IMG/VR virus record: IMGVR_UViG_3300023184_000108 | From: an uncultured virus (IMG/VR IMGVR_UViG_3300023184_000108) | Taxonomy: Duplodnaviria > Heunggongvirae > Uroviricota > Caudoviricetes | Direction: 5' to 3' (one strand) | Length of the DNA stretch: 64,000 nucleotides | In this document: one piece after another, positions 40,622 through 57,965 of the stretch | Layout of the letters: the number at the start of each line of letters is the position of its first letter | Numbering within the stretch: the stretch's first letter is position 1 | Notes under the pieces: generated by a model | Told to the model about the DNA's origin: nothing | The model's input: the letters and a program-made list of their open reading frames with translations, nothing else | Database searches by the model: none | Program-made: the position numbers and the translations under genes

Positions 40622-43135
40622 ATGATGGCAACAAACATGGACAAAGCCGTCTACACAGACGCACCTCAAGGCATCGAGCAACTCGGTGACGAGCAAGAGC
40701 CGATTGAGATTCAGATTGAAGACCCAGAGGCTGTAAGTATCAGTGGCCCGGGCTTTGAGATTGAAATGGAGAAGACTCAAGATGAGGATGAGTTCAATAA
40801 GAACTTAGCTGAAGAGATGAGTGAGGACGAGTTGGTGCGCCTTGCTGGGGATCTAATTGGCGAGTATGAAGCAGATGTCTCTAGTCGTAAGGACTGGATA
40901 CAGACTTACGTCGACGGCTTAGAACTCTTGGGTATGAAGATCGAAGAGCGTATGGAGCCTTGGCCCGGCGCATGTGGTGTTTACCACCCCATCTTAAGTG
41001 AGTCCGTGGTTAAGTTTCAAGCGGAGACAATGATGTCTACGTTCCCAGCAGCGGGGCCAGTTAAGACACAGATTATCGGCAAAGAAACCCCAGAGAAAAA
41101 GAAAGCTGCTGATCGCGTGCAAGTGGATATGAACTACCAGCTTACGGATGTGATGAAGGAGTTTCGTCCGGAGCATGAGCGTATGTTATGGGGCTTGGGT
41201 CTGGCAGGTAACTCATTTAAGAAAGTGTACTTTGATCCTAGCTTGGATCGTCAAGTGTCTATGTATGTGCCCGCCGAGGACGTAGTTGTGCCTTATGGTG
41301 CTTCAAGTTTAGACTCAGCAGAACGCGTGACCCATGTTATGCGCAAAACATCCAACGAGTTAAAGCGTCTACAGCATGAAGGATTCTACAGAGATATTGA
41401 CTTAGGTGATCCAGTCAATGTGATGGACGAAGTGGAGAAGAAGATTGCTGAGAAGTTGGGCTTCAGAGCATCGGAAGATGACCGCTTCAAACTCTTAGAG
41501 ATGCAGGTTGAGTTGGATTTACCCGGCTACGAGCATATAGATGAGAACGGTGAAGAGACAGGCATTGCACTGCCTTACATCGTGACTATTGAGAAGAGCA
41601 CCAACAATATATTAGCGATTCGTAGAAATTGGAGACCAGAAGATGAGCAGTGTCATAAGCGTACTCACTTTGTTCATTACGGTTATATCCCGGGTTTTGG
41701 ATTCTACTGTTTTGGTCTTATTCATCTTATTGGTGCTTTTGCCAAGTCTGGCACTTCTATTCTGCGTCAGTTGGTTGACGCTGGTACCTTATCAAACTTG
41801 CCGGGCGGTTTCAAGACACGTGGTCTCAGGTCTAAGGGAGATGACACACCGATAAGCCCCGGGGAATTCCGAGATATGGACGTCCCAAGCGGCACCATCC
41901 GCGACAACATCATGCCGCTGCCATATAAAGAACCAAGTCAGGTTCTGGCTGCTCTCCTCCAAACAATTATTGATGAAGGTCGCAAGTTCGCGGGCACTGT
42001 TGACTTGCAAGTTTCTGACATGTCTGCCCAGTCCCCCGTCGGAACAACGCTGGCAATTCTCGAGCGTCAACTCAAAACCATGAGTGCAATTCAGGCTCGT
42101 GTCCATTATTCGATGAAGCAAGAATTTAAGTTGCTCAAGGATATCATACGTGACTACACCCCAGCTGACTACAGCTACGAGCCAGAAGAAGGCGGTCGTC
42201 ACGCTAAACAAAGTGACTACGACTACGTCGAGGTGATTCCTGTCAGTGATCCGAATGCAGCAACGATGGCTCAAAAGGTCATCCAATATCAAGCAGCATT
42301 GCAGTTGGCGCAAACCGCGCCACAACTGTACGACCTACCCCAGCTTCATAGACAGATGTTGGAAGTGATCGGTATTAAGAATTACCAGAAACTTGTACCG
42401 ATGGCGGAGGATATGAAGCCACGTGACCCAATCACTGAGAACATGAATATCCTTTCCAACAAGCCAGTCAAGGCGTTTTTGTACCAAGACCATAAGGCAC
42501 ACATTGCTGTTCACATGGCGGGTATGCAGGATCCTCATGTTCAAGAGTTGGTAGGTCAGAATCCTCAAGCAGCGCAGATGTTGCAAGCAGCGATGTCGGC
42601 ACACATTGGTGAGCATTTGGGTATGGAGTACCGGAAAGAAATTGAGCAGCTTATGGGTATCCCGCTTCCTCCATACAACGAGGAGAAGGATGAAGTTGAG
42701 ATGGCTCCCGAGGTTGAAGTGCAAGTATCTCAGTTGGCAGCGCAAGCAGCGCAGCAGTTATTACAGCAGCACCAACAACAATCTCAACAAGCCAAAGCTC
42801 AGCAGCAAGCTCAAGACCCGCTCATCCAGTTGCAGCAGCAAGAGTTGCAGATTAAGCAAGGCGACTTGCAACGCAAGTCTCAGAAAGACATGGCTGACAT
42901 GCAAGCCAAGATGGCTCAGATTCAAGTTGAACTCAAGCGTATTGAGTCTAATCAAGAGACTGAAGGAGCCAAGATTGCTATGCAGCACCAGAATAACGAA
43001 GCCCAGCGTCGTGCGCAGCATGAACAACAAGGGTTTACGTCTGGTATTGATCTGTTAAAGACTCAACAGCAGCAGTCTCACCAATTGAAGCATCAAGACA
43101 GACAACTGCGTAATAAACCAAATAGGGGCGAATGA
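40622..43135 (+). CDS. Portal protein
   Basis: Follows TerL; EPWPGACGVYHP, FKKVYFD, GFGFY.FGLIH; Gln-rich C-terminal barrel. Confidence 0.85.
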   Translation: MMATNMDKAVYTDAPQGIEQLGDEQEPIEIQIEDPEAVSISGPGFEIEMEKTQDEDEFNKNLAEEMSEDELVRLAGDLIGEYEADVSSRKDWIQTYVDGLELLGMKIEERMEPWPGACGVYHPILSESVVKFQAETMMSTFPAAGPVKTQIIGKETPEKKKAADRVQVDMNYQLTDVMKEFRPEHERMLWGLGLAGNSFKKVYFDPSLDRQVSMYVPAEDVVVPYGASSLDSAERVTHVMRKTSNELKRLQHEGFYRDIDLGDPVNVMDEVEKKIAEKLGFRASEDDRFKLLEMQVELDLPGYEHIDENGEETGIALPYIVTIEKSTNNILAIRRNWRPEDEQCHKRTHFVHYGYIPGFGFYCFGLIHLIGAFAKSGTSILRQLVDAGTLSNLPGGFKTRGLRSKGDDTPISPGEFRDMDVPSGTIRDNIMPLPYKEPSQVLAALLQTIIDEGRKFAGTVDLQVSDMSAQSPVGTTLAILERQLKTMSAIQARVHYSMKQEFKLLKDIIRDYTPADYSYEPEEGGRHAKQSDYDYVEVIPVSDPNAATMAQKVIQYQAALQLAQTAPQLYDLPQLHRQMLEVIGIKNYQKLVPMAEDMKPRDPITENMNILSNKPVKAFLYQDHKAHIAVHMAGMQDPHVQELVGQNPQAAQMLQAAMSAHIGEHLGMEYRKEIEQLMGIPLPPYNEEKDEVEMAPEVEVQVSQLAAQAAQQLLQQHQQQSQQAKAQQQAQDPLIQLQQQELQIKQGDLQRKSQKDMADMQAKMAQIQVELKRIESNQETEGAKIAMQHQNNEAQRRAQHEQQGFTSGIDLLKTQQQQSHQLKHQDRQLRNKPNRGE

Positions 43136-43338
43136 TGTCTTACGAAATTAAAAAATTTACTGAAGTAGCGATCAAACAGATCGACGAGAAAGTTAAACAA
43201 CTTGAAGATGCCTTGGGGGCGCGAGCTGCTAAGTCATACGACGAGTACTGCGGGATGTGTGGGGAAATTACAGGTCTGCTCATCGCTCGTAGATACATCA
43301 CAGACCTGACGAAAAACATGGAGAACTCGGATGAGTGA
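43132..43338 (+). CDS. Conserved small hypothetical protein
   Basis: AKSYDEY..CG.I.GL motif between portal and GroES. Confidence 0.65.
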   Translation: MMSYEIKKFTEVAIKQIDEKVKQLEDALGARAAKSYDEYCGMCGEITGLLIARRYITDLTKNMENSDE

Positions 43339-43744
43339 AACCTTAGATCTTGGCTTGGCGCTGGATTTGTCAGCGATCATGCACAAGAAAGCGGAAGAAA
43401 AAGCAAAGCAATTACCCAAGCCTTCAGGCTACAAAATCTTGTGCGCAGTACCGGAGCAAGACGAAGAAATTGAAGGTAGCGAGATTGGGTTGGTAAAAGC
43501 GGCAGAAACTATTCGATACGACGAGCTGCTCACAACAGTTTTGTTTGTAGTTGAGTTAGGGCCTGACTGCTACGCGGATAAGGCAAAGTTTCCAACTGGG
43601 CCTTGGTGCAAGCAAGGTGATTTTGTGTTGACTCGACCCAATGCAGGTTCACGTTTACTCATCCATGGACGAGAGTTCCGCATCATTAACGACGACTCAG
43701 TCGAAGGTGTTGTAGAAGATCCCCGTGGCGTCAAACGCAAATAA
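43331..43744 (+). CDS. groES: GroES-like co-chaperonin
   Basis: P.GYKIL, VVELGPD.Y, GDFVL, G.EFRIINDD.V.GVV. Confidence 0.8.
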   Translation: MSETLDLGLALDLSAIMHKKAEEKAKQLPKPSGYKILCAVPEQDEEIEGSEIGLVKAAETIRYDELLTTVLFVVELGPDCYADKAKFPTGPWCKQGDFVLTRPNAGSRLLIHGREFRIINDDSVEGVVEDPRGVKRK

Positions 43745-43753
43745 GGAGCGTAC

Positions 43754-44728
43754 ATGTCAAGATTTGGTGGCGAATATAAGTTCCCTGATGAACTTGAAGA
43801 AGAAAAGGCCCAAGAGGTAGATGTTCAGATTGAGGACGATGAAGTCGAAATAAAAATTGTCGATGACACTCCCCAAGAAGACCAATTTGCAACACCTCCT
43901 CTGGATGATGATACTCAGCAAGAGCTTGAGAAAGCCGATGAATCTGAGGAATACAGCAAGAACGTAAAAGTCAAGTTTAAGCAATATAAAAAGGCTTGGC
44001 ATGATGAACGTCGAGCAAAAGAAGCAGCTTTGCGTGAGCAACAAGAAGCGCTCACAGTCGCCGAACGAATTTTAGATGAGAATAAAAAGCTCAAGTCTAT
44101 GATTCAAACTGGTGAAAAAGAATTAATTTCCACGTACCAAAGCTCTGCGGAAATGGAACTTGACAAAGCTGAACGGAATTACAAAGAGGCTTATGACTCT
44201 GGCGATTCTGACAAGCTTTTGGCCGCGCAGAAAGAGTTAGTTCGGGCAGAAATGAAGCTTGATAAAGCAAAAAATTTCAAACCCACTGTACAAAACCAAG
44301 AAAATGATGTACAAACTACCCAAACTAACCAGCCTGCAACTCAGCAGATGGATCCTAAGGTTGCTAACTGGGTCTCGAAAAACCCATGGTTTGTAGACCG
44401 ACACAAGCTGGCAATGCGCAAATTTGCTGAAGGAGTCCATGAAGAACTTGCAGAACGGTACGGACGTGGATATATAGGTACTGACGAATACTACGGCAGT
44501 ATCGACAAAGAAGTCAGACGCAGATTCCCAGAAGAATTTGCTGCTACTACAAACAACGAAGAGGAAGAAAAACCTCAACGTACAAAACCAAGCACAGTTG
44601 TTGCACCGGCTAAGCGTAGTACTGCCCCCAAACAGGTTGTACTGTCGAAGACTCAAGTTGCCTTGGCTAAAAAATTAAAACTAACCAACGAGCAGTACGC
44701 TCGTGAAATGATGAAATTGGAGGCCTAA
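43754..44728 (+). CDS. Putative capsid scaffolding protein
   Basis: Acidic N-terminus, coiled coil, W..NPWF, C-terminal LS..QVALAKKL..EQYA. Confidence 0.7.
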   Translation: MSRFGGEYKFPDELEEEKAQEVDVQIEDDEVEIKIVDDTPQEDQFATPPLDDDTQQELEKADESEEYSKNVKVKFKQYKKAWHDERRAKEAALREQQEALTVAERILDENKKLKSMIQTGEKELISTYQSSAEMELDKAERNYKEAYDSGDSDKLLAAQKELVRAEMKLDKAKNFKPTVQNQENDVQTTQTNQPATQQMDPKVANWVSKNPWFVDRHKLAMRKFAEGVHEELAERYGRGYIGTDEYYGSIDKEVRRRFPEEFAATTNNEEEEKPQRTKPSTVVAPAKRSTAPKQVVLSKTQVALAKKLKLTNEQYAREMMKLEA

Positions 44729-44729
44729 G

Positions 44730-45197
44730 ATGGCAACAGAGATTAAAGCAACGGATAGCAGACTGTCGCGCGAAATGCAGAATAGAGAAACGCAAGTACG
44801 CCCCCGTGTGTGGCAAGCTGCGGAAACTCTTCCCGAACCTGATAAAGAGCCGGGATATGCTTACAGATGGGTTAGGGTTTCTACTTTGAATGAATCTGAC
44901 CAACGCAACATTACCGGCATGTTCCGGGAAGGTTGGGAGCCAGTGGCAGTCGAAGAGCAACCTAAGTTTCGGATGATGATCGATCCCGATAGTCGATTTA
45001 AAAATAATATCGAAATTGGCGGGTTATTGCTTTGCAAAACACCTGTTGAGCTTCAAGAACAGCGCAGTCAACACTTCGCTACAAAAACCAAGGCTCAAGC
45101 AGATGCTGTAGACAATAACCTAATGCGTCAAAGTGATCCAAGGATGCCACTCTTCAAAGAGAACAAGTCCTCAGTGAGCTTTGGCAAAGGTTCTTAA
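44730..45197 (+). CDS. Conserved head-module protein
   Basis: GYAYRWVR..REGWEPV..GGLLLCK motif. Confidence 0.65.
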   Translation: MATEIKATDSRLSREMQNRETQVRPRVWQAAETLPEPDKEPGYAYRWVRVSTLNESDQRNITGMFREGWEPVAVEEQPKFRMMIDPDSRFKNNIEIGGLLLCKTPVELQEQRSQHFATKTKAQADAVDNNLMRQSDPRMPLFKENKSSVSFGKGS

Positions 45198-45215
45198 TTT
45201 TTCAAGGAGTCTAAA

Positions 45216-46112
45216 ATGGCTTTTCCGACGATTAGTGGCCCCTACGGGCTAAAGCCGGTGAACTTGATTGGTGGTCAGGTGTTTGCGGGTTCTACCCGTA
45301 ATATCCCCGTTCAATACGGATACGCTACCAACATTTTCTATGGCGATTTTGTAGCAATCACTCGCGGTTTTGTTACCCGCTTAGCAGTTACTGATGGCGG
45401 CTCTGCTTCCACCGGTGCGGCTGGTTACGGTGCTGTGGGTATTTTCTTGGGCTGTTCTTATACAGACCCAGTAACCAAGCAAAAACGTTTTAGCCAATAC
45501 TGGCCCGCTTCGACTTTAGCTGGAGACGGAGTTGCTATCGTGACTGATGATCCTGATACGGTCTTTAGAGCGGCTGTTGTTACCTCTCAAGGTGGCACAA
45601 CTATTGGCTCAGCATCACCTGCAATGATCGGTCTTAATATGACCGTCTCTAACTTGGCTGGTAGCGTCAATACTGGTAACTCGTCAAACGGCATTTTGGC
45701 ATCTTCTGCTGCTACAACCGCTGCTTTACCTGTCCGTATTGTTGATATGGTTCAAGAGACAGCTATTCCTTTGGGAACAGCAACATGGTCTTCAGGCACA
45801 ACAACTTTGACTTTGTCAGCTACTGGTAACACAGTGCAAGCACTCCCAGTGGGCACTGCGGTTGGTTTCTTAGCAGCAAACGGTCAATACGTTGGTACAG
45901 CAAACTGGGTTTCTACAGCAGCTTCTGCTGGCGCAACATCAGTAGTTGTCAATGCCCAATACGGGGTAGTTAATGCTGGCGGCGCTGCTGCTACGGCTAC
46001 CGTTATTCCAACCGGATCCACGATGGTGTTTACACAGTATCAGGAAGTTCTTTGCAAGATCAACTTCGCTGTCCACTCGTACTACACTGCTCTTGGTACT
46101 CAAACAGCTTAA
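45216..46112 (+). CDS. Putative capsid decoration / minor capsid protein
   Basis: PYGLKPV, IFYGD, GIFLGCSYTDP, V.DDPD; immediately before MCP. Confidence 0.65.
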   Translation: MAFPTISGPYGLKPVNLIGGQVFAGSTRNIPVQYGYATNIFYGDFVAITRGFVTRLAVTDGGSASTGAAGYGAVGIFLGCSYTDPVTKQKRFSQYWPASTLAGDGVAIVTDDPDTVFRAAVVTSQGGTTIGSASPAMIGLNMTVSNLAGSVNTGNSSNGILASSAATTAALPVRIVDMVQETAIPLGTATWSSGTTTLTLSATGNTVQALPVGTAVGFLAANGQYVGTANWVSTAASAGATSVVVNAQYGVVNAGGAAATATVIPTGSTMVFTQYQEVLCKINFAVHSYYTALGTQTA

Positions 46113-46124
46113 GGAGTAACTTAA

Positions 46125-47036
46125 ATGGCTATTTCACGCGCACAACTGTTAAAAGAACTCCTTCCCGGATTGAACGCATTGTTTGGTCTGGAGTACGCAC
46201 GTTATGGTGAAGAACATAAAGAAATTTATGAAATTGAAACCTCTGAGCGTTCTTTTGAAGAAGAAACGAAACTTTCAGGTTTCTCTGCTGCACCTGTTAA
46301 GAACGAAGGCTCAGCCATCGCTTACGACAATGCACAAGAAGCATGGACTGCTCGCTATAACCACGAAACCATTGCTTTGGGTTTCTCATTGACCGAAGAG
46401 GCCATTGAGGATAACTTGTACGACAGCTTGTCTGCTCGGTACACCAAAGGTCTGGCTCGTGCAATGGCATATACCAAGCAGGTTAAAGCTGCTGCTGTAT
46501 TGAACAACGGTTTCTCTGCTGCTTATACCGGCGGTGATGGCGTTGCTTTGTTCAACACTGCTCACCCCTTGGTTAACGGCGGCACTAACAGCAACACTCC
46601 CTCAACTCAAGCTGATTTGAACGAAACTTCTTTGGAAGCTGCCGTTATTCAGATCGCTGCTTGGACAGACGAGCGTGGTTTGTTGATCGCTGCTAAACCC
46701 AAGAAATTGGTTATTCCCCCTGCATTGCAATTCGTGGCTACCCGCCTGTTGGAAACCAGCCTGCGCGTTGGTACAAACAACAACGATATCAATGCAATCA
46801 AGAATAACGGTTCAATTCCAGAAGGTTATACCCAAAACCACTTCTTGACCGATACCAATGCTTGGTTCTTGACTACAGACGTACCTAACGGTATGAAGAT
46901 GTTCGTTCGTACTCCGCTGGCTAACAGCATGGACGGCGACTTTGACACCGGCAACGTGCGTTACAAGTCCCGCGAGCGTTATTCGTTCGGCTGGTCTGAT
47001 CCATTGGGAATGTTTGGATCCTCTGGTTCATTCTGA
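46125..47036 (+). CDS. Major capsid protein
   Basis: MAISRAQLLKELLPGLNALFGLEY..DFDTGNVRYKSRERYSFGWSD; strong SD, biased codon usage, followed by terminator. Confidence 0.92.
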   Translation: MAISRAQLLKELLPGLNALFGLEYARYGEEHKEIYEIETSERSFEEETKLSGFSAAPVKNEGSAIAYDNAQEAWTARYNHETIALGFSLTEEAIEDNLYDSLSARYTKGLARAMAYTKQVKAAAVLNNGFSAAYTGGDGVALFNTAHPLVNGGTNSNTPSTQADLNETSLEAAVIQIAAWTDERGLLIAAKPKKLVIPPALQFVATRLLETSLRVGTNNNDINAIKNNGSIPEGYTQNHFLTDTNAWFLTTDVPNGMKMFVRTPLANSMDGDFDTGNVRYKSRERYSFGWSDPLGMFGSSGSF

Positions 47037-47063
47037 TAATTTGGTTTTAAACAACCAAATGGG

Positions 47064-47087
47064 GGCCCCCAAAAGGGGCCTTTTTTT
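47064..47087 (+). terminator. Intrinsic terminator after MCP
   Basis: GGCCCC-N5-GGGGCC plus T7. Confidence 0.85.
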
Positions 47088-47164
47088 ATTATCTTTTGCC
47101 TGTAATAAAGCTCTTGTACGATTATTTTGCAGCGCGGTGTTGCACCCATTTTTAGGAGTTAATT

Positions 47165-47539
47165 ATGTACAAGGTTGAGATTGATATTTCTGTTTGGGGT
47201 TTTGAAGACGACGAAAAATTAGTTATTCATACCACTGATTTTGAGAAAGCACAAATCATCCAAGAGTTCGTTGCGTTCCAGCAAGAGCATGGTTGGGCTG
47301 TTGATTACGAAGCAGTGTCTTACGAAGATGAAGACGAAGATGATGATGATGACTACGTTTATGACGAAGATACCGATGCTTGGTATTGGTACGACGGAGA
47401 GATTGATACTTGGTATGTCTACGATGAAGAGTCTGCTGACTGGATTGAGTACGTTGAAGACGAAGAAGAAGAAGAAGATGAATCCGAAGAAGAATCTTCT
47501 ACCACGACCACATACGTCATTACTAAAATTGACGAGTAA
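47165..47539 (+). CDS. Highly acidic aromatic-repeat protein (possible DNA mimic)
   Basis: SD AGGAG; D/E runs flanking YVYDEDTDA-WYWYDGEIDT-WYVYDEESAD-W repeats. Confidence 0.6.
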   Translation: MYKVEIDISVWGFEDDEKLVIHTTDFEKAQIIQEFVAFQQEHGWAVDYEAVSYEDEDEDDDDDYVYDEDTDAWYWYDGEIDTWYVYDEESADWIEYVEDEEEEEDESEEESSTTTTYVITKIDE

Positions 47540-47559
47540 TCGCTATTCGCGAATAGCGA
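47540..47559. repeat. Perfect 20-bp palindrome
   Basis: TCGCTATTCGCGAATAGCGA is its own reverse complement. Confidence 0.8.
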
Positions 47560-47562
47560 ACA

Positions 47563-47934
47563 CTAGGGGGCTTCGGCCCCTTTTTCTTTTTCTCTTTTAC
47601 GTTCATTGTAGTGGTAAACCCTATGGCAATTTGAACACAAAACTACACATTGCTCAACTTCCTCCATTGCCTTTTTATAGCGCCCAGCCCCTACGAGTGT
47701 ATGGACACTTGCGTTTTTCATATCAGGGTCTATGTGGTGAAAGTCTAATATTGCTGGATGGTTTAGCCCACATTCAAGGCAAGACAGGGTGGCTTTAAAT
47801 TCTCTCCACTCAATTCTTAATTTTTTACTGCGTTTTTTGGTTGAAGCTTTAACCTTATCTGAATTTTTGCCGTAATGTTTTTTAGAATACCCACGTTGCT
47901 TTTCTTTCTTTTTGGTGGGATCTTTGTACGGCAT
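47563..47934 (-). CDS. HNH endonuclease (antisense to structural arm)
   Basis: CLECG..LDFHHIDP..CVVLCSNCHRVYH. Confidence 0.8.
   Translation of the reverse strand: MPYKDPTKKKEKQRGYSKKHYGKNSDKVKASTKKRSKKLRIEWREFKATLSCLECGLNHPAILDFHHIDPDMKNASVHTLVGAGRYKKAMEEVEQCVVLCSNCHRVYHYNERKREKEKGAEAP
47567..47590 (+). terminator. Intrinsic terminator
   Basis: GGGGC-TTCG-GCCCC plus T tract. Confidence 0.85.
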
Positions 47935-47935
47935 A

Positions 47936-47963
47936 TTGACATTCTACACAAATCATGTATATT
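47936..47963 (+). promoter_or_regulatory. Sigma70-like promoter
   Basis: TTGACA-N16-TATATT. Confidence 0.65.
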
Positions 47964-47968
47964 GCTCC

Positions 47969-48044
47969 CATCTGGGTGATTGCTTTTACCGCCACTGCCC
48001 CAGCAGACGATGCAACGATTGGTAAGAGCGCTTTTGCATAAGGA
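47969..48044 (+). ncRNA. Candidate pseudoknotted cis-regulatory RNA
   Basis: Stems CTGGG/CCCAG and ATGCAA/TTGCAT whose loops are complementary over 9 nt (GCTTTTACC/GGTAAGAGC); abuts SD. Confidence 0.5.
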
Positions 48045-48052
48045 TTTTTATC

Positions 48053-49060
48053 ATGGCACGCGCAACATTTGAAGGCCCCATTCTTGCGGGCGACAATCGT
48101 TTTGGGCCTCTTCGTAACGTAGGTTACACAGAAGCAGTTCAAACAGCATACCTAGACATTCTCAACACAACCGCTAACACTTCTGGTTATTCTGGTGGCT
48201 CTGGTGTGTTTGTTAGATCAAACGGCATTCCAAATTCACAAGCAACGGTGTATTCACCTTCTGCAACGGCATTTCCACCTACGGCACAAACAATTCCTGC
48301 GGATTCTGCGACCAACATATATCGTGGTGCTGTTATGTATCTGCCTTATGGCTCAACCATAAACGACGTTTTTGTTGATTGTGGTAACCCTGTAGCCGTT
48401 TCTGGTGGTTCAGCCGCACTTACTTCTGCTACTGTGTATGTTTCAAATAACTATACAGCCGCCGCAGGTACAGCAAAATATTTTCAAACTGGTTCTATTA
48501 CTGCTGCTGGTCGTCAATCGCTGTCAACATTTACTACAGCGCAACTCTATAACCAACAGCTTGGCACTACCGGTGACATCACCAACCCACCCGCAAGCGG
48601 TCAAGGTACAAGCCCTAATAGCAACCTAGTATCACAGCTTGTATTTACCCTTGCTATTGTTGGCACTTCTTTAGATACACGCGTTGCTACGGCGACTGTT
48701 GCTGGTGCTGTGATTGCAGACACTATTGGTACTTTCACTTGTACTTCTAACGCGTTTTTGGCTGTTGGTCAAACAATAACTCTTTCTGGAACATATGGTG
48801 GTACAGGTTCAATTACTGGCTACTCAAACCCAACAAGCTATTTGGTTGCTACTGCTACTGGCGGCGCTGGTACTGTTACTGGATTTAAGATTATTAACTT
48901 GGACGGTAGCCCTGTTACAACAACTGCGGGTACACCTACAGGTATTACTTACACAATCAGTTCAGCACTTTCTGGTAGGTTCCTTTTCACGGCACGTTAT
49001 ACGCAGCTTGATGGCAACATTGGCAGTACCACTGCTTACCCATACGGTAACTTTGACTAA
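48053..49060 (+). CDS. Virion structural protein (Thr/Gly-rich)
   Basis: MARATFEGPI N-terminus, LP.GS.I..V.VD beta pattern; followed by terminator. Confidence 0.65.
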   Translation: MARATFEGPILAGDNRFGPLRNVGYTEAVQTAYLDILNTTANTSGYSGGSGVFVRSNGIPNSQATVYSPSATAFPPTAQTIPADSATNIYRGAVMYLPYGSTINDVFVDCGNPVAVSGGSAALTSATVYVSNNYTAAAGTAKYFQTGSITAAGRQSLSTFTTAQLYNQQLGTTGDITNPPASGQGTSPNSNLVSQLVFTLAIVGTSLDTRVATATVAGAVIADTIGTFTCTSNAFLAVGQTITLSGTYGGTGSITGYSNPTSYLVATATGGAGTVTGFKIINLDGSPVTTTAGTPTGITYTISSALSGRFLFTARYTQLDGNIGSTTAYPYGNFD

Positions 49061-49069
49061 TTGAGTAAC

Positions 49070-49091
49070 GGGGGCTTCGGCCCCCTTCTTT
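49070..49091 (+). terminator. Intrinsic terminator
   Basis: GGGGGC-TTCG-GCCCCC-TTCTTT. Confidence 0.8.
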
Positions 49092-49110
49092 GGATTTAAA
49101 GGAGTATCGT

Positions 49111-51942
49111 ATGTCAGGTGGATGGACAGTAGTTGACTCAACGTCAAACAAATCAATTCCTATTCAAGGAACAACCGTTTCAGGCGCTGCTGCGCCTTTT
49201 GTAACACCTGCTCCGGGTACACAAGACCCAGTAGGAAAATTCCGCGTATCTCAACCTCAAGCGTTGATTGATACCGACTTTGAATATGGTACGCAGCCTA
49301 CAAAGTGGGAATCTATTTCTTTACAAAACAATAGGCAAAGCACATATTATATTCAACAACAGCCTTTGGTTGTTACATCAATCACAGGCACAACAACACT
49401 AACACTTACTGGCACATTTGTTGTTGCCGCCAATACACCAATCTTTATCCAAAATGCAACTGATTCATATGCCAACGGATGGTGGTGGACAATTGCTGGT
49501 GGTACAAACACAATGACCTGTATCCCCACAACTGCGCCAGCAGCAGGGGAAAAGTTTAGTGCGACAGGCACTTATGTGTATGCAGGTTATTTTTATTCAA
49601 ACTGCGGTATAGCTTTATCTTCAACAACAGCGTTTACAACAGATGGTACAGCTACTGTTCTTTGTACAACCACTGGTGCTCACGGCCTTCAAAAAGACAG
49701 TTTGATTTATATCAAGGGTACAACCAGCTCAGGAACAACCATCAACGGTGCGTTTGTTGTTGCGACAGTACCAACAGCTAACACATTCACTTTTGTGAAC
49801 ACCAACGGTACGGTGGCGGCATCAGCTATCACCAACGTTGCTAACAATACTACGCTTTATGCCCGTCCTGCGGGTTATGTAGAGCCTCGTACTTTTGATG
49901 GTGGTGTGGCATTTACTGCTGGTGGTGGAGCGCCTAATCAACAGTTGATTCGTCAAACACGTCGTTATTTCCGTTACCAGTCTGGCAAGGGTATTCAGTT
50001 TTCTACGGGTTCATCTTTAAAACCCGCACTGTTTGTTACTTCTATTACGGGTACTGGAACAACTGCGACAGTCACCACTCGTTATGTTCATAACATGACA
50101 GTAGGTTCTAAAATACAGGTGGCTGGATGTAATCAAGGCGTATATAACGGAACATTTACTGTTGCGTCTATTGTCAACCCAACATCTTTTACATACACAA
50201 CTGTCAATAGTATTGGCACCACCCCTGCAACAGGACTTATTCGTATCAGCCCTTTGAGTTGGTATGGATCTTCTAATCGTGTTGGAATGTTTGACCAGCA
50301 AAACGGATTCTTTTTTGAGTTTGATGGTCAGACTTTGTACGCTGTGCTGCGAAATTCCATTAACCAGATCAACGGAACAGTTGCCGTAACCAACGGCTCA
50401 AACATTGTTACGGGTACGGGTAGCGCATTCTCAAGTCAATTATTGATTGGTGACTATATTGTTATCCGTGGGCAGTCTTATAAAGTGCTTACGATTACCA
50501 GCGATACTGTTTTGCAGGTTTCTCCTGAGTATCGCGGCACTACGATTAGCGGTGCTTTGGTGTCTCGCACAATTGATTTTAGAATCCCACAGTCATCTTG
50601 GTACGATAGAGCTGATGGTACAGGCCCATCAGGATATAACATTGATCTGACTCGTATGCAGATGTGGTACATCGACTACTCATGGTACGGTGCTGGTGTT
50701 GTTCGTTTTGGTTTCCGCGGTTCAAAAGGACAAATAACCTACGTTACACAGATTCAAAACAATAACGTACAGTTTGAAGCCTACATGCGTTCTGGAAACA
50801 TGGCGGCTCACTATGAGTCAAATGGACAATCCCCAATAACACAGTTGTCAGCCAGTTTAAGTGCGGGCGGTACAACCACTTTATCTGCGGCATTGGCTGT
50901 TGATGCTGTAACAGTTCCAATAACTTCAACAACTAACTTTAACTCTGCTGGTGTTGCTGTTATCGGCACTGAGTATATTTACTACACAGGCATATCAGGT
51001 TCTAGTTTAATTGGTTGTACAAGAGGTTATGGCGGCACAGCTGCAAAATCTTATGCAAGCGGCACAGCAATCGGCCCATCTTCGATTGATATTGATAATG
51101 GCGCTGGTTTTGCTCCAAGTGGTTCAGTTAAAGTACAAGCATCAGGTGCTTCTGGAGCAATTGAGTACATCGCTTACGCAGGCAATGACGGCAGTTTCTT
51201 GTATGGTTTAACTCGCGGTCAAACTGGTGGAGCTGCTGCAACAGCGTTTACCTACTCAGCAACAGCCCCTGTAGCGGTTGAGTTTGCGTCTCCTGATACT
51301 GTTCCTTCCCTGTCTCATTGGGGTTCATCAGTAATTATGGATGGTACTTTTAACGATGATAAATCGTTAATTTTTAACTACGGTATAAGTGTTCCAGTAA
51401 CTTTGCAAACAACAGTTACCCAAGTATGTCCATTGCTTGCAATTCGAATTGCGCCCGCTGTTGATAACGGTCAAATTGGATTGCTTGGTCAAAGAGAAAT
51501 TATCAACCGTATGCAGTTGCAGTTGGTTGAATTGGGGGTTGTTACAAGTGGTACTACTTTAATTACTTTGGTACTGAACGGTTATGTATCGGGCGGAACG
51601 TGGGGAGCTTGGACTTCGCCAGTTTCTCAAGGTGTTGACGCTGTTATTTCATCGTTGGCTCAAGTTTCGGTGAACACTTTAACCACTGGCACATTGAAGG
51701 GCGGTGAGTCAGTTGCTGCGTTTTATACTAATACATCTGGTCAAACTGTTTTGGACTTGTCCCAAGTACGTGACATCGGTAACTCAATTTTGGGTGGTGG
51801 TAATAGCTCTGCTGTGTCTACAAGCCCTGCCAACGTCTACCCAGATGGCCCTGATGTTTTGTATGTTTGCGCTACCAACGTGGTAGCCGCAGCAACACCA
51901 AGTGTGTACACTCGTTTGTCTTGGAAAGAAGCACAGGCTTAA
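49111..51942 (+). CDS. Large multi-domain virion surface protein
   Basis: SQPQALIDTDFEYG, RQTRRYFRYQSGKG, IDYSWYGAG motifs; FCCH-like beta repeats; SD AAGGAG before ATG 49111. Confidence 0.65.
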   Translation: MSGGWTVVDSTSNKSIPIQGTTVSGAAAPFVTPAPGTQDPVGKFRVSQPQALIDTDFEYGTQPTKWESISLQNNRQSTYYIQQQPLVVTSITGTTTLTLTGTFVVAANTPIFIQNATDSYANGWWWTIAGGTNTMTCIPTTAPAAGEKFSATGTYVYAGYFYSNCGIALSSTTAFTTDGTATVLCTTTGAHGLQKDSLIYIKGTTSSGTTINGAFVVATVPTANTFTFVNTNGTVAASAITNVANNTTLYARPAGYVEPRTFDGGVAFTAGGGAPNQQLIRQTRRYFRYQSGKGIQFSTGSSLKPALFVTSITGTGTTATVTTRYVHNMTVGSKIQVAGCNQGVYNGTFTVASIVNPTSFTYTTVNSIGTTPATGLIRISPLSWYGSSNRVGMFDQQNGFFFEFDGQTLYAVLRNSINQINGTVAVTNGSNIVTGTGSAFSSQLLIGDYIVIRGQSYKVLTITSDTVLQVSPEYRGTTISGALVSRTIDFRIPQSSWYDRADGTGPSGYNIDLTRMQMWYIDYSWYGAGVVRFGFRGSKGQITYVTQIQNNNVQFEAYMRSGNMAAHYESNGQSPITQLSASLSAGGTTTLSAALAVDAVTVPITSTTNFNSAGVAVIGTEYIYYTGISGSSLIGCTRGYGGTAAKSYASGTAIGPSSIDIDNGAGFAPSGSVKVQASGASGAIEYIAYAGNDGSFLYGLTRGQTGGAAATAFTYSATAPVAVEFASPDTVPSLSHWGSSVIMDGTFNDDKSLIFNYGISVPVTLQTTVTQVCPLLAIRIAPAVDNGQIGLLGQREIINRMQLQLVELGVVTSGTTLITLVLNGYVSGGTWGAWTSPVSQGVDAVISSLAQVSVNTLTTGTLKGGESVAAFYTNTSGQTVLDLSQVRDIGNSILGGGNSSAVSTSPANVYPDGPDVLYVCATNVVAAATPSVYTRLSWKEAQA

Positions 51943-51943
51943 C

Positions 51944-52255
51944 ATGGCAACTCCAGCATGGCAACGCAAAGAAGGCAAGAACCCGAATGGCGGCTTGAAC
52001 GCCAAAGGCCGAGCCTCTGCGAAGAAAGAAGGACACAACCTGAAGCCCCCACAACCAGAAGGCGGCAGCAGGCGCGACTCTTTCTGCGCCCGGATGAAAG
52101 GCATGAAGTCGAAGCTCACGAGCGCCAAGACCGCAAGCGATCCGGATTCGAGGATTAACAAGTCTTTGAGAGCATGGAACTGCGCTGAAGGCGGCTATGT
52201 GAGTGCGGCTGATGGATGTGCTACCAAAGGCAAAACGAAAGGCAGGTTTGTGTGA
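51944..52255 (+). CDS. Small basic protein (DUF6321-like) with ADG.A.KGKT.G tail
   Basis: AWQRKEGKNPNGGLNAKGRAS..SFCARM..DPDSRINKSLRAWNC. Confidence 0.7.
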   Translation: MATPAWQRKEGKNPNGGLNAKGRASAKKEGHNLKPPQPEGGSRRDSFCARMKGMKSKLTSAKTASDPDSRINKSLRAWNCAEGGYVSAADGCATKGKTKGRFV

Positions 52256-52494
52256 TGGATTTAAACACTATATGGTCTGCTGGACTTTCTGTTTTGATGG
52301 GAGCTTTGTGGTTCTTTATCAAAGAGAAGTTTGAGGATGTCAAACGAATTGAGCGTTTACTCAATACAACCCGTGAGGAGATGGCCCGTGATTACGCAAC
52401 TAATTCAGAAGTACAAAGAGTTACTGACCACATTGACCAGCGGTTTAACCGCCTTGAAGCAAAAATTGACCAGCTTATTCAAGCGGGGAAGTGA
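52255..52494 (+). CDS. Small TM plus coiled-coil protein
   Basis: N-terminal TM; LLNTTREEMARDY..RLEAKID. Confidence 0.65.
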   Translation: MDLNTIWSAGLSVLMGALWFFIKEKFEDVKRIERLLNTTREEMARDYATNSEVQRVTDHIDQRFNRLEAKIDQLIQAGK

Positions 52495-52910
52495 TGCCAA
52501 GCAGTAGTGCAAAGCAGCATAAATTCATGGAGGCGGTGGCCCACAACCCAGCGTTTGCCAAGAAGGTAGGAGTTCCACAGTCTGTGGGCAAGGATTTTTC
52601 AACCGCCGATAAAGGCAAAACTTTTAAAAGAGGTGGCGAGATGGCTACAAAAATGGATCCCAAGATGATGGCAATGATGGCTGCTAAAAAACGTGGTGCT
52701 GGCATGGGCGCTATGGCTGCTCCCGCTGCCCCTACTGGTGGTATGGGTATGGGCATGATGAAAAAAGGCGGCACGACCAAAAAGATGGCAACAGGTGGTT
52801 TGGCTGCGGCTCACAAAGCTGCTGACGGTGTTGCTTCTAGAGGTAAAACTAAGGGTATGCAAGTTTCCATGTCTGGTAACAAGGGCATGAAAAAAGGCGG
52901 CAAGGTCTAA
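52494..52910 (+). CDS. Small basic Met/Lys/Gly-rich protein
   Basis: KQHKFMEAVAHNPAFAKKVGVPQSVG; four xxxGG motifs; ADGVASRGKTKG. Confidence 0.7.
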   Translation: MPSSSAKQHKFMEAVAHNPAFAKKVGVPQSVGKDFSTADKGKTFKRGGEMATKMDPKMMAMMAAKKRGAGMGAMAAPAAPTGGMGMGMMKKGGTTKKMATGGLAAAHKAADGVASRGKTKGMQVSMSGNKGMKKGGKV

Positions 52911-52920
52911 GGAGTAAATC

Positions 52921-53337
52921 ATGGCAACAAGCGCATTTGGTAAAGCATTCCGTGCAGCCCGCGATGCAGGTGATACAGAGTTTGAATTTAATGGTAAAAA
53001 GTACAACACCAAACTGAAGGAAGAAGATTCAGGTTCATCCAAGTCTTCTACTCGCGCAGCTCGTCCAACATCTACTGAAACTAGATCAGCCCCCGAGCCA
53101 CGCGAGTCAGCTGCCGCTGCATCTAATGACCAAACTTCTTCTGCTCCATCTTCTGATAGTTCAAGCAGTAGTAAATCATGGTGGACAACCCCTAATAAAA
53201 ATTTACAAGAAGGTACATTCCCAAGCGGAAAAGAAATTCGTTCTGCTTTAGGTTCGTCCTATAAAAAAGGTGGTTCTGTTTCCAGCCGTGCAGACGGTAT
53301 TGCTCAGCGGGGTAAGACTCGCGGAAAGATGTGCTAA
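52921..53337 (+). CDS. Small disordered protein with SSRADGIAQRGKTRG tail
   Basis: F.KAF.AAR..G..EFEFNGKKYNT; SD AAGGAG. Confidence 0.7.
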   Translation: MATSAFGKAFRAARDAGDTEFEFNGKKYNTKLKEEDSGSSKSSTRAARPTSTETRSAPEPRESAAAASNDQTSSAPSSDSSSSSKSWWTTPNKNLQEGTFPSGKEIRSALGSSYKKGGSVSSRADGIAQRGKTRGKMC

Positions 53338-53340
53338 ATC

Positions 53341-53616
53341 ATGGCTGCTGAAGACGACAAGAAAGCTGCGCAGTATCGCAAAGAAGCCAAGATCGGCGGT
53401 ACTGATGCGCCGGTTCCTTCAAGCGTTACACAAGAAGTAGAAGACAAAAAAGCGGCGGCTAAAGCTGCTGCGGCTCCTACAACTAAAACACAAATGGGTA
53501 AACCGTTTTCAAAGGGCGGGTCAGCTTCTAGCCGCGCAGATGGTATTGCCCAGCGTGGTAAGACCAAGGGAACTTTTATCATGTGTGGTGGCGGTATGGC
53601 AAAGGGCAAACGATGA
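53341..53616 (+). CDS. Small basic protein with SSRADGIAQRGKTKG tail
   Basis: Tail shared with the upstream gene. Confidence 0.65.
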   Translation: MAAEDDKKAAQYRKEAKIGGTDAPVPSSVTQEVEDKKAAAKAAAAPTTKTQMGKPFSKGGSASSRADGIAQRGKTKGTFIMCGGGMAKGKR

Positions 53617-53891
53617 TGGCGAGCCGTGGCATGGGTGACATCGCCCCTTCCAAGATGCCAAAAGCCAAGACGATCACTCGTAAAGATGATCCGAACAAGG
53701 TCAAGGTATACAAGGAAGGCGGGGGCGTCAATGCTGCTGGCAACTACACTAAACCGGAATTGCGCAAGCGGATCGTGTCTCAAGTCAAAGCTGCAGCAAC
53801 ACAAGGCACAGGTGCTGGTCAGTGGTCAGCAAGGAAAGCTCAGTTGGTAGCCAAGAAATACAAAGCTGCTGGTGGAGGATACAGAGATTGA
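53613..53891 (+). CDS. Small basic protein (DUF5872-like N-half)
   Basis: SRGMG, NYTKP.LRKRI, GQWSARKAQL..KKYK.AGGGY. Confidence 0.65.
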   Translation: MMASRGMGDIAPSKMPKAKTITRKDDPNKVKVYKEGGGVNAAGNYTKPELRKRIVSQVKAAATQGTGAGQWSARKAQLVAKKYKAAGGGYRD

Positions 53892-54124
53892 AAGCGCCGC
53901 AACAGTCCTTAAAAAACTGGGGCGACCAGAAGTGGCGTACCAAGTCAGGTAAACCATCTTCTAAAACTGGTGAGCGGTACTTGCCAGAAGCGGCAATTAA
54001 ATCTTTATCCCCCGCAGAATATGCGGCGACAACGAAAGCAAAAAGACAAGGCAAGGCGGCGGGTAAACAGTTTGTAAAACAGCCGCCCAAAGTGGCGAAG
54101 AAAACAGCAGGATTTAGAAAATGA
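53888..54124 (+). CDS. Small basic protein (DUF5872-like C-half)
   Basis: QQSLKNW..QKWRTKSGK..ERYLP.AAIKSLS..EYAATT; TTG start overlapping upstream stop. Confidence 0.6.
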   Translation: MKAPQQSLKNWGDQKWRTKSGKPSSKTGERYLPEAAIKSLSPAEYAATTKAKRQGKAAGKQFVKQPPKVAKKTAGFRK

Positions 54125-54324
54125 TTTCTTTTATCCAAAAACAACTTGAGGCTTCTGAACGCATGTTTGAACTCATGCACAGAGACCATAAAGAGCGCAT
54201 GGAACAGATCGTGATGTGGGCGGATATGAATGAAAGCTTGATGCGCAAACTAGAAGAACGTGATCGAGAGATTGCGCGATTGCAAGGTCTTTTGAGAGCA
54301 CATGAAGTTATGGAAAAAATTTAA
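54121..54324 (+). CDS. Hypothetical coiled-coil protein
   Basis: Coupled ORF. Confidence 0.55.
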   Translation: MISFIQKQLEASERMFELMHRDHKERMEQIVMWADMNESLMRKLEERDREIARLQGLLRAHEVMEKI

Positions 54325-54337
54325 CTAAGGAAGATAT

Positions 54338-54595
54338 ATGTCACAACTTAATCTCACCCCCGAAGAAGACCAAATGCTGTTGGCTGCTCTGCGTACGCAC
54401 GCTGCTCAATATCAAGCTATGTTTGGATCCTCTGAGACAACAATGTTGGCTTTGATTGCCAAGGTTGAAGGCCAATTGTTACAGCCTGTTCCAGCCGATA
54501 TTATTGAGCCAACAGACGAAGAAGTGGAAGCCCATTTTGCTGCTGTAGAGGCTGCTACTACTAAAACCAAAAAAACCAAGGTAGTTGAAGAGTAA
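54338..54595 (+). CDS. Hypothetical protein
   Basis: SD AAGGA; coupled to the next gene. Confidence 0.55.
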   Translation: MSQLNLTPEEDQMLLAALRTHAAQYQAMFGSSETTMLALIAKVEGQLLQPVPADIIEPTDEEVEAHFAAVEAATTKTKKTKVVEE

Positions 54596-55518: not shown

Positions 55519-55526
55519 GGTGAGCT

Positions 55527-55916
55527 ATGCCAAATAGATTTGCCTCAGGTAAGTATGCGATTGCAGAGTGCGATAGGTGTGGACAACGATACAAATTGCA
55601 GGAGTTGCGTAAGCAGGTTCTTAAGACTAAGATTTACTCAATCAAGGTTTGCGGATCTTGCTGGGATCCAGACCAACCGCAGCTTCAGCTAGGAATGTAT
55701 CCAGTCAATGACCCTCAGGCAGTGCGTGAGCCAAGACCGGATACAAGCTACCAAGTCTCAGGTGTACTTGCAGATGGCGAGAACGGGGGCGGTAGTCGTA
55801 TATTCCAGTGGGGCTGGACGCCGGTTGGCGGGGCGCAAGCAAACGATGCAGGTCTGACGCCAAATGTCTTGGCAATGGCTGTGCAAATTGGTACAGTAAC
55901 GGTAGCAACGACTTAA
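55527..55916 (+). CDS. Zn-ribbon-containing conserved protein
   Basis: ASGKYAIAECDRCG..VCGSCWDPDQPQL..DPQAVREPRPD. Confidence 0.65.
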   Translation: MPNRFASGKYAIAECDRCGQRYKLQELRKQVLKTKIYSIKVCGSCWDPDQPQLQLGMYPVNDPQAVREPRPDTSYQVSGVLADGENGGGSRIFQWGWTPVGGAQANDAGLTPNVLAMAVQIGTVTVATT

Positions 55917-55923
55917 GGAGTCA

Positions 55924-57956: not shown

Positions 57957-57965
57957 AGGAAAAAT

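Follow-up and report, generated by a model that had tools for sequence, protein, structure and literature searches.

Several messenger RNAs carry pseudoknotted leaders that are recognised by proteins and act as translational operators, among them those of T4 gene 32, E. coli rpsO (S15) and the nested pseudoknot of the alpha operon (S4), and autogenous control of this kind is known both for ribosomal proteins and for T4 gp32. In tailed phages, the described RNA that lies closest in position to the element considered here is Mu-gpT-DE (Rfam RF03012), whose name we take to stand for 'downstream element' of gpT genes and which reportedly goes back to Weinberg and co-workers in 2017. Rfam represents this family by a 53-nucleotide (nt) consensus typed as 'Gene; sRNA' (small RNA), with its function given there as unknown; the consensus ends in the Shine-Dalgarno (SD) sequence and the start codon of a capsid cement gene, and the drawn structure consists of a 4-base-pair (bp) outer stem, overlapping the SD with its 3' strand (CAGG), around a 5-bp hairpin and a 13-nt unpaired stretch. 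The subject of this study is the leader of about 70 nt that precedes, on the plus strand, the open reading frame (ORF) of protein P0002, a probable capsid cement or decoration protein, in 64,000 nt of DNA from an uncultured member of the Caudoviricetes (IMG/VR record IMGVR_UViG_3300023184_000108), a stretch hereafter called the window. The element is new to Rfam 15; it is a structured phage leader related by position to the orphan Mu-gpT-DE, and its topology is unusual. On comparative grounds it most likely controls the amount of cement protein made.

The comparative model of the leader has five helices, P2 closing a three-way junction that carries P3 and P5. From the 5' end, the transcript tail CUGGG (47972-47976), which is the 5' strand of P1, is followed by an A/U-rich linker of 3-9 nt, here UGAUU (J1/2, 47977-47981), by the 5' strand of P2, GCUUUUACC (47982-47990), by the G of a wobble pair at the junction (47991) and by CCA (J2/3, 47992-47994), the last A of which stands directly 5' of P3 in 130/130 distinct leaders. 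P3 itself (CUG, 47995-47997, with CAG, 48004-48006) encloses a variable spacer nucleotide (47998; C in 86, G in 35, T in 6 and A in 3 of the 130) and CCCAG (47999-48003), which fills five of the six loop positions and is the 3' strand of P1. One A (48007), invariant in a MAFFT alignment of the 130 leaders (A3, which misaligned CTGGG and served for none of the counts) and in 24/24 superfamily members, separates P3 from the two pairs of P5 (CG, 48008-48009, with CG, 48016-48017), whose entire 6-nt loop, AUGCAA (48010-48015), is the 5' strand of P4. The strand then continues with AU (J5/2, 48018-48019), the G48017-A48018 step being conserved in the alignment and in the parsed superfamily, with the U of the junction wobble (48020, partner of G47991), with the 3' strand of P2, GGUAAGAGC (48021-48029), with GCUU (J2/4, 48030-48033), which ends in CUU in 127/130 leaders, and with the 3' tail UUGCAU (48034-48039), the 3' strand of P4.

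Helix lengths are 7-11 bp for P2, 3-5 bp for P3 and 2 bp for P5, and the loops of P3 and P5 have 6 nt each. P1 arises from pairing of the P3 loop (N-CCCAG) with the transcript 5' end and P4 from pairing of the P5 loop with the segment next to the SD, and the continuous strand CCCAGCAGACGAUGCAA (CCCAG-CAG-A-CG-AUGCAA) is paired throughout, with four separate segments. Because CCCAG lies in the P3 loop and P5 encloses ATGCAA, the fold is a three-way junction with two loop-to-tail pseudoknots, its strands following each other in the order P1-P2-P3-P1'-P3'-P5-P4-P5'-P2'-P4'. From this connectivity, the 5' end would enter at the joint of P1 and P3 and the SD would leave at the joint of P4 and P5, both beside the junction, and the distal ends of P2 and of the two arms would be held together by the short linkers in a closed bundle of three arms. 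We know of no described RNA with the same arrangement.

An earlier sequence-only reading of the locus had drawn two hairpins with kissing loops between a promoter and the ribosome-binding site (RBS). The pairings themselves lie exactly where it placed them: CTGGG (47972-47976) with CCCAG (47999-48003) and ATGCAA (48010-48015) with TTGCAT (48034-48039) both covary, GCTTTTACC (47982-47990) and GGTAAGAGC (48021-48029) form 9 pairs including one U.G (U47985.G48026), and the structure ends, at a distance of 0 nt from P4, on the SD AAGGA (48040-48044) of the ORF that starts at 48053. The arrangement has to be replaced: instead of two kissing hairpins there are five helices around a three-way junction, with the two loop-to-tail pseudoknots. 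Likewise, the pairing of CTG(C) (47995-47998) with (G)CAG (48003-48006), which had been taken for an alternative, is indeed present, not as a competing pairing but as the covarying helix P3. The broader proposal of a compact cis-acting RNA between promoter and RBS, for which a protein-binding operator, a riboswitch-like element and a small ribozyme had been named as candidates, agrees with the covarying pairs, with a span from the predicted transcript start to the SD and with the association with one gene family.

Taken by itself, the window sequence folds no better than its shuffles (minimum free energy -20.2 kcal/mol against -19.1 +/- 2.9, z -0.37, on the plus strand; z +0.22 on the minus strand) and therefore proves nothing; it is the comparison among relatives that decides. 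In an unguided MAFFT alignment of 50 distinct leaders (A1), scored with the helices of the sequence-only reading plus CTG/CAG, 96.0% of the cells were paired against 86.5% after shuffling (reached by 0/500 shuffles) and 31-42% when the partners were slid, 119 cells had changed on both sides against 33.6, and the covariation score was 0.300 against 0.129. A covariance model, R1, was built from the nested helices P2, P3 and P5, and the alignment of 100 distinct sequences derived from it (A4) is fitted to these three helices and not to P1 or P4. Scored with the full pseudoknotted structure, A4 had 97.4% of its cells paired, against 87.5% in shuffles and 28-43% in slid controls, and 285 double-changed cells against 72.6, with a covariation score of 0.326 against 0.141; for pairing, double changes and covariation alike, 0/500 shuffles attained the observed value. 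Compensatory double changes were found in 13/26 pairs, and RNAalifold recovered P2, P3 and P5 on this alignment, itself fitted by the covariance model. It is the sense strand that folds, since G.U pairs are frequent on it and reverse complements never fit the architecture (0/56). The check that had been proposed with the sequence-only reading, an alignment of homologous leaders, thus finds the element both conserved and covarying in A1 and in A4.

The individual helices differ in the letters that they allow. P1 was paired in 100/100 sequences of A4, its middle pair changing from G-C to A-U in 5/100 (6/130 distinct leaders). In P2, double-sided changes affect nine of the ten pairs, as many as 6 pair types occurring at a single position, and 73 distinct P2 haplotypes occur among the 130 leaders. 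P3 also paired in 100/100, 2/3 of its pairs covarying, and its variants include GCCC/GGGU, GCCU/AGGU, GCCG/CGGC, ACCC/GGGU and CCG/CGG. In P5, again paired in 100/100, C48008-G48017 is replaced by U-A in 10/100 and never on one side alone (11/130 leaders, on several P2 backgrounds), G48009-C48016 being the second pair. P4 paired in 97/100 as aligned, and the other three, from the clade L031/33/35, re-pair it in the same positions as UGCAAU/AUUGCA once an alignment gap is removed. Lengths are held within narrow limits, J1/2 and the P2 5' strand totalling 13-15 nt in 124/130 leaders (12-16 overall) and the 3' side 12-15 nt. At the junction pair, the 130 leaders have G.U in 105, A.C in 18, A-U in 2, U.U in 2 and G-C in none, the C.U of the remaining 3 being parse artefacts; the A.C cases always carry C at the position of 48020 and occur on at least 6 P2 backgrounds. 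G.U and protonated A.C are isosteric, and therefore the wobble geometry of the junction appears to matter.

The leader is conserved in hundreds of uncultured lake phages and keeps to one gene. With P0002 as the protein query, 77 loci of 43-99% protein identity were found in viral contigs, and the leader stands before the start codon in 77/77, its core CCCAGCAGACGATGCAACGAT remaining nearly invariant even at 43% identity. A scan of viral contigs with a pattern made of the second of the two initially proposed hairpins alone returned at least 120 loci; of the 120 matches listed, 119 hold the rest of the motif, and the match at L145 was discarded as a chance hit within a coding region. Among these listed loci, 116/118 readable downstream ORFs match P0002 at E<=1e-4, the two others being the chance hit at L145 and a stub of 9 codons where a contig ends (E 1.5). 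Altogether 192 instances were parsed, which gave the 130 distinct leaders. R1 found exactly one match per source in 100 sources (423,655 nt), at 57-107 bits, and in the window the motif occurs as a single copy, used neither for the capsid gene nor for any other gene. A 21-mer scan of the genome collection gave one phage-like contig in a metagenome-assembled genome (MAG) of Nanopelagicaceae, and among 151 genomes of that family the R1 search placed the motif in this MAG only; a 21-mer match in a Dehalococcoidia MAG was rejected as fortuitous. The 17-kb phage-like contig binned in a Candidatus Nanopelagicaceae MAG (L198, G001:C22) carries promoter, leader and cement gene in full and encodes a capsid protein with 88% identity to that of the window. 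This binning could be a host hint or an artefact, and no host is assigned from it.

The architecture extends to phages with other helix sequences. R1 matches the leader of the annotated cement gene of the cultured phage DSL-LC04 (L200:3446-3537) at 27.4 bits (E 1.4e-5), where the same helices are built of P1 CUAGG/CCUAG, P2 CUCGUAUC/GAUACGAG, P3 CUG/CAG, P5 CU/AG and P4 UAGUAG/CUACUA, the SD lying 3 nt downstream of P4. When viral contigs were searched with the cement protein of DSL-LC04, 433 relatives were obtained, 80 of which were taken further; 77 of these 80 had enough upstream sequence, yielding 56 distinct leaders. A strict five-helix parser accepted 21 of these 56, against 0/5600 shuffles, 0/56 reverse complements and 0/56 coding stretches, and near-fits by eye were seen among the rejected leaders (L206, L277, L250, L246 type). 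Together with the window, L031 and L200, the 21 make up 24 parsed leaders, in which 10 complementary P4 pairs, 6 P1 pairs and 4 P3 pairs occur, and in which the only universal letters are the A before P3, the A-C after P3 and the G-A after P5. R1 also scored 21-40 bits on L264, L276, L250, L206, L239, L204 and L243, and P4 overlaps the SD in L264, L272 and the L246 type.

Other cement-gene leaders are arranged differently. Shorter ones (L218, L220, L228, L229, L242, L256, L266, L279 and L280) show repeated AGAC/CGAC motifs before the SD, together with a CCCA element complementary to the UGGG of the start AUGGG; a further step of reduction may be seen in them, or the repeated motif may be one that proteins bind. 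In the Planktothrix phage Pag-Yong1 (L201 3404-3507), the syntenic gene annotated as 'minor capsid protein' has a GC-rich leader of another arrangement, with a CCCGGGG/CCCCGGG hairpin and a segment CCGUCUCC that pairs with the SD-containing GGAGACGG. An R1 search of this Pag-Yong1 leader gave no match; here the same regulatory problem may have been solved in another way.

The Rfam 15 covariance models gave 0 matches at the gathering score over the whole window and, at E<=10, nothing but junk in 47500-48300 and 47955-48065, with no RF03012 and no ribozyme family among the hits. The sequence-only reading had recognised no named family, and this holds in so far as the leader is unmatched in Rfam; what it did not have was the positional relative Mu-gpT-DE. 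Both sit in the slot that follows a Mu-gpT-like major capsid gene and precedes the cement gene, and they share the order of parts, that is, outer stem (P2), A, hairpin (CAG../..CUG; P3), A-C, about 9 nt (the P5/P4 loop), G-A and the 3' strand of the outer stem; in both, a loop segment pairs with a downstream strand, as in P4. On the other hand, Mu-gpT-DE lacks P1, has a 4-bp outer stem that lies over the SD and uses the start codon for its P4-like pairing, whereas the leader of the window has a P2 of 9-10 bp, and its class has a P1 and a P4 with dedicated tails and an RBS outside the fold. The RF03012 model matches the leaders L213, L219, L224, L230 and L261 at 60.6-71.9 bits (gathering score 49); against the window it gave no match, and none at E<=1 against ten other five-helix leaders, and R1 run on Mu-gpT-DE-type leaders gave no match either. 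Since neither model matches the leaders of the other, the two classes are linked only by their position and by the junction letters.

Besides the Mu-gpT-DE-type leaders L212, L213, L219, L224, L226, L230, L236, L241, L261, L263, L267 and L270, a scan for members gave at least 120 loci (L283 onward, L283-L362 tabulated), from which 105 distinct leaders were parsed. In these, the 8-12-nt segment that Rfam leaves unpaired is complementary to the start-codon region over a mean of 5.16 bp against 3.65 bp for shuffled loops, and it forms a helix of at least 5 bp in 71% of the 105 leaders against 15% of shuffles. This helix covaries with the second codon (UAGCCA/UGGCUA, ACCCA/UGGGU, UCCCA/UGGGA, UUGCCA/UGGCAA, UCGCCA/UGGCGA). 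Because the partner of its loop is the start codon itself, Mu-gpT-DE looks like a reduced form, and to judge by these pairings it looks like a 5' leader that sequesters the SD and AUG of the cement gene rather than a 'downstream element' or an sRNA. The main text of Weinberg et al. 2017 (PMC5737381) has no mention of gpT, the supplement lying outside this comparison, and the original Mu-gpT-DE alignment may be broader than that of Rfam.

Several described RNAs resemble the leader in part. The operators of T4 gene 32, rpsO and the alpha operon are, like it, gene-specific pseudoknotted 5' leaders at or near their own RBS, and in them, as is proposed for the leader, the fold is the object recognised; the position expected of an autogenous operator is seen here too, P4 ending 0 nt before the SD in 119/130 leaders; there is no similarity to them in sequence or model, and P0002 would be a capsid accessory protein, not a nucleic-acid-binding one. 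The leader shares its topology with the pistol ribozyme (RF02679), in which a strand that lies within a second helix is paired with the loop of a 5' hairpin, but the leader gives no Rfam match, lacks the pistol P3 hairpin, the conserved AAA linker and the G-U cleavage site and has the extra helices P3 and P5. HDV-like (hepatitis delta virus-like) ribozymes form a nested double pseudoknot in the order P1-P2-P3-P3'-P1'-P4-P4'-P2', which differs from the strand order of the leader, where P1' lies inside the P3 loop. None of the pistol, twister, twister-sister, hatchet, hammerhead and HDV-like covariance models matched the leader at E<=10. The exoribonuclease-resistant RNAs of flaviviruses are three-way junctions whose 5' end is tied in by a pseudoknot and in which a hairpin loop pairs with a 3' tail; as in the leader, the fold closes around the 5' end, but these elements belong to the 3' untranslated regions of RNA viruses of another kingdom and no model match links them to it. 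Finally, 5' stem-loops of the ompA type stabilise bacterial mRNAs only when very few unpaired nucleotides precede them, and the leader has a similarly paired 5' end, with a predicted start 2 nt before P1; ompA-type elements are plain hairpins that show neither gene specificity nor a conserved tertiary architecture. Supplementary files 3-6 of Fremin et al. 2023 (PMC10690425) contain neither the core sequence nor any of four contig identifiers, the alignment archives lying outside this comparison, and one of the 10,006 unnamed IMG/VR candidates of that study may cover the motif. The passages considered from the Minerva preprint are unrelated to the leader.

The transcription unit is compact. The -35 hexamer TTGACA (47936-47941) and the -10 hexamer TATATT (47958-47963), separated by 16 nt, lie precisely where the sequence-only reading put them, agree with the consensus at 11/12 positions and were the top sigma-70-like match in a scan of 15 kb (43000-58000). 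In 132 distinct upstream regions aligned on P1, the -35 consensus at -34 to -29 is T (.81) T (.61) G (.48) a c a and the -10 consensus at -12 to -7 is TATAnT (T.82, A.81, T.72, A.72, n, T.79), with G at -13 in 82%, a pyrimidine at -1 in 97% and a purine at +1 in 99% (A.89, G.10). These positions point to a start at the A 47970, 7 nt downstream of the -10 hexamer and 2 nt 5' of P1; in other subfamilies, the -10 hexamer lies 7-9 nt 5' of P1 and the predicted start 0-3 nt before it. The leader would thus begin exactly at the transcription start and end at the SD. In 119/130 leaders there is no nucleotide between P4 and AAGGA, GGA and AUG are 6-9 nt apart, and across the family and the other subfamilies the SD lies 0-4 nt downstream of P4. 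The P0002 ORF (48053-49060, plus strand, 335 aa, ATG at 48053) is followed by an intrinsic terminator, GGGGGCUUCGGCCCCC with a U-rich tail (49070-49085), and the scan of the window found no terminator between leader and ORF. Since promoter, leader, ORF and terminator come in succession, P0002 forms a monocistronic unit; its downstream neighbour is reached across a 50-nt gap without an obvious promoter of its own.

P0002 probably encodes a capsid cement or decoration protein. It has no Pfam or PHROG match, and its family comprises at least 1197 protein clusters, all unnamed. Its AlphaFold (AF2) model, with a predicted local distance difference test score of 72, matches as a whole the Pam1 capsid chain 7eel_H (Z 6.7), the KHP40 cement protein 7dou_4 (Z 6.0) and the GP4 capsid 8h89_J (Z 5.5), matches that are suggestive only because all have Z < 8. 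In the cultured distant relatives, the syntenic gene immediately downstream of the capsid gene bears the annotation 'cement protein' in DSL-LC04 and 'minor capsid protein' in Pag-Yong1, and hhalign aligned the P0002 family, over its 38 N-terminal columns, with the cement protein of DSL-LC04 at a probability of 82.8% (E 9.3e-6). P0002 also contains an inserted beta-barrel of about 100 residues (about 210-304; window 48680-48964), which most relatives (231-245 aa) lack and which resembles EF-Tu domain 2 folds, its top structural match being the head-to-tail interface chain 9jlf_E of phage FCWL1 (Z 7.5). Birnavirus VP2, the best PDB match of Foldseek (E 7.5e-4), was discarded as not meaningful at a TM (template modelling) score of 0.17, and the best Foldseek matches in BFVD were uncharacterised proteins. 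A tblastn search of cultured phages with P0002 gave no match, and blastn of 46000-50000 matched only the capsid gene.

How might such a leader act? The architecture outlasts the turnover of helix sequences while the junction letters and the wobble stay fixed, and therefore its shape may be recognised by a trans-acting effector. Our preferred, still tentative reading, which we would put a little short of an even chance, is that the folded leader is an operator or aptamer which, with such an effector, governs translation initiation and probably also the fate of the 5' end. The effector would recognise the junction and the shape and stabilise the fold; the favoured candidate is a phage late protein, possibly unassembled cement protein itself, by analogy with the autogenous systems mentioned at the outset. 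The bound fold would then keep the 30S subunit from the SD that abuts P4 and match cement synthesis to demand, and with the effector absent the exposed SD would allow strong translation while the buried 5' end would protect the message. That the leader domain would control ribosome access is further suggested by the reduced relatives, which hold SD and AUG within the fold. Our literature searches found no description of post-transcriptional regulation of a capsid cement protein.

A number of points weigh against this preferred reading. The effector is so far a candidate, and we know of no RNA-binding activity of a beta-sandwich cement protein; the fold matches that suggest the name cement protein for P0002 all lie below Z 8, and the transcription start is predicted from promoter geometry alone. 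In the window class, the SD and the AUG lie outside the conserved helices (unpaired probability in the nested ensemble 0.46 and 0.54, respectively), and no conserved alternative pairing between leader and RBS was found in the 130 leaders, the duplex having -12.4 kcal/mol against -14.2 kcal/mol for shuffled RBS sequences. Leader and gene could also occur together because a single phage lineage has inherited them as one module, and not because of function. Contigs from four lake metatranscriptomes (4 runs, 4 studies) cover the leader and gene of relatives at 88-99% identity, and these RNA-library contigs cross the promoter from the upstream terminator and do not confirm the start, which fits read-through or DNA carry-over. 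These contigs break where the variable P2 strands begin or end (47986-48001, 48016 and 48044), which is read as an assembly effect.

Because SD and AUG lie outside the helices and no alternative pairing with the RBS was found, the fold could be constitutive, and this makes a serious rival of the view that the leader is a stabiliser and translation tuner, in which a 5'-triphosphate end held in a pseudoknot, and so shielded from decay that depends on the 5' end, and a free SD would give a long-lived, heavily translated mRNA with no effector at all. The unsequestered SD and AUG of the window class speak for it, as do the 0-3 unpaired nucleotides before P1 in every subfamily (counted from the predicted start) and the strongly promoted, terminated, monocistronic gene beside the capsid gene. 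For such a task, however, a simple hairpin would suffice, and a simple constitutive hairpin does not explain the fixed architecture well; five helices, universal junction letters and a wobble-only pair are an excess of constraint, the element is used neither for the capsid gene nor for any other gene of the window, and the simpler relatives bury SD and AUG. We regard the stabiliser as improbable on balance, but as something to be reckoned with. At the other extreme, a reading with no RNA structure at all, in which the region is a DNA-level site for a regulator or a homing endonuclease or the pairing is due to chance, could appeal to the non-significant folding of the single sequence and to an HNH gene that abuts the region; it is contradicted by the double changes in 13/26 pairs (285 cells where 72.6 were expected) and by reverse complements, which fit in 0/56, and most relatives keep the leader without the HNH gene, which leaves its probability close to nil.

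The covarying helices with few universal junction nucleotides, the isosteric G.U and A.C at the junction, and a size and pseudoknots typical of small aptamers would also suit a riboswitch, in which a small molecule or ion bound by the junction core locks P1 and P4 and alters ribosome access, and a conserved structured element of the 5' untranslated region that stands ahead of the gene to be regulated and ends at the SD is what a riboswitch would look like. Against this, the gene codes for a virion protein, for which no metabolic connection suggests a ligand, about 5 universal positions are few for a binding pocket, no known riboswitch model matches and no conserved expression-platform pairing was found in the 130 leaders of the window class, nor a terminator between leader and ORF, although in the reduced relatives SD and AUG lie within the fold. 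We hold a riboswitch to be rather improbable. A new self-cleaving ribozyme, trimming the 5' end or cutting capsid read-through transcripts to leave a cement mRNA with a 5'-OH, would accord with a compact double pseudoknot of few conserved nucleotides, with the wobble at the junction, with the phage context and with a topology like that of pistol without its P3. It is quite unlikely, given that no Rfam ribozyme model matches, that the helix order is unlike that of HDV-like ribozymes and that a start 2 nt upstream leaves almost nothing to remove; contigs spanning the leader uncut in 3 RNA-library runs (X2 record 8, X1 record 1, X3 record 19) argue weakly in the same direction, since contigs do not show transcript ends and DNA carry-over is possible. 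Considered jointly, a new riboswitch or ribozyme class, that is, a closed three-way junction which senses a ligand or ion or cleaves itself and thereby sets cement synthesis, seems unlikely to us, if not strongly so; were it true, the 5' end and the segment abutting the RBS would each be plugged into a 6-nt loop throughout a very large group of aquatic phages, and Mu-gpT-DE would be the reduced form of the class. Scarcely more credible than self-cleavage, and marginally less so if anything, is an independent sRNA gene, or a put-like element that lets the polymerase read through the 49070-85 terminator into the downstream virion genes. Rfam does type the positional relative Mu-gpT-DE as 'Gene; sRNA', the element lies directly 3' of a promoter, and the strong terminator after the gene precedes a neighbour with no obvious promoter in the 50-nt gap; yet no terminator separates element and ORF, the element always ends at the SD, the Rfam Mu-gpT-DE model itself includes SD and start codon, and nothing links the fold to the polymerase.

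The window around the unit is that of a phage genome, with a terminase (39089-40615), a portal (40622-43135), an HK97/Mu-gpT-like capsid protein (46125-47036; Pfam PF10124 Mu-like_gpT, 7.6e-10) and genes for DNA polymerase A, a DUF927 primase-helicase and SU10-type adaptors; none of the genes of the window was recognised as a phage RNA polymerase. In relatives, the capsid stop codon and terminator are followed by promoter and leader, whereas in the window two inserted ORFs intervene after the capsid terminator (47061-83). One, placed between capsid terminator and HNH gene and with a terminator of its own at 47565-82, is an ORF of 124 aa (47165-47539, plus strand) that has no family match and is missing from relatives. 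The other, overlooked by the sequence-only reading, is a free-standing HNH endonuclease ORF of 123 aa on the minus strand (47563-47934; phrog_3106, 2.7e-24), whose start codon is separated from the -35 hexamer by the single base A47935. The HNH ORF is found in some relatives (L001, L008, L074), other HNH-like starts occur in L018 and L022-26, and most relatives lack the gene, the capsid terminator directly preceding the promoter with the leader kept. The HNH ORF looks like a mobile insertion that spared the promoter.

Some further observations concern other parts of the window. Many unrelated RNA-library contigs accumulate at 47455-47494, a low-complexity sequence, with GAA-repeat loose ends. 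Downstream of P0002, the ORF of a 950-aa virion structural protein (49090-51942) overlaps by 41 nt, in a different frame, an ORF of 117 aa (51902-52255) that carries DUF6321, a domain which in PHROG families forms the C-terminus of long proteins (e.g. 847-928 of 928); the overlap could reflect a frameshift, a split gene or a sequencing error. Elsewhere, the sole domain match of an ORF of 2217 aa (8958-15611) is LPD38, a large polyvalent protein domain, near the C-terminus.

At about 70 nt, the leader is small enough for direct probing and structure determination, and phage DSL-LC04 offers a cultured representative. Its covariation, its double-pseudoknot topology and its hundreds of variants are the kind of raw material from which riboswitch, ribozyme and operator classes are defined. 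For the family as a whole, these leaders give the orphan Mu-gpT-DE a concrete reading and tie it to a larger relative that Rfam misses.

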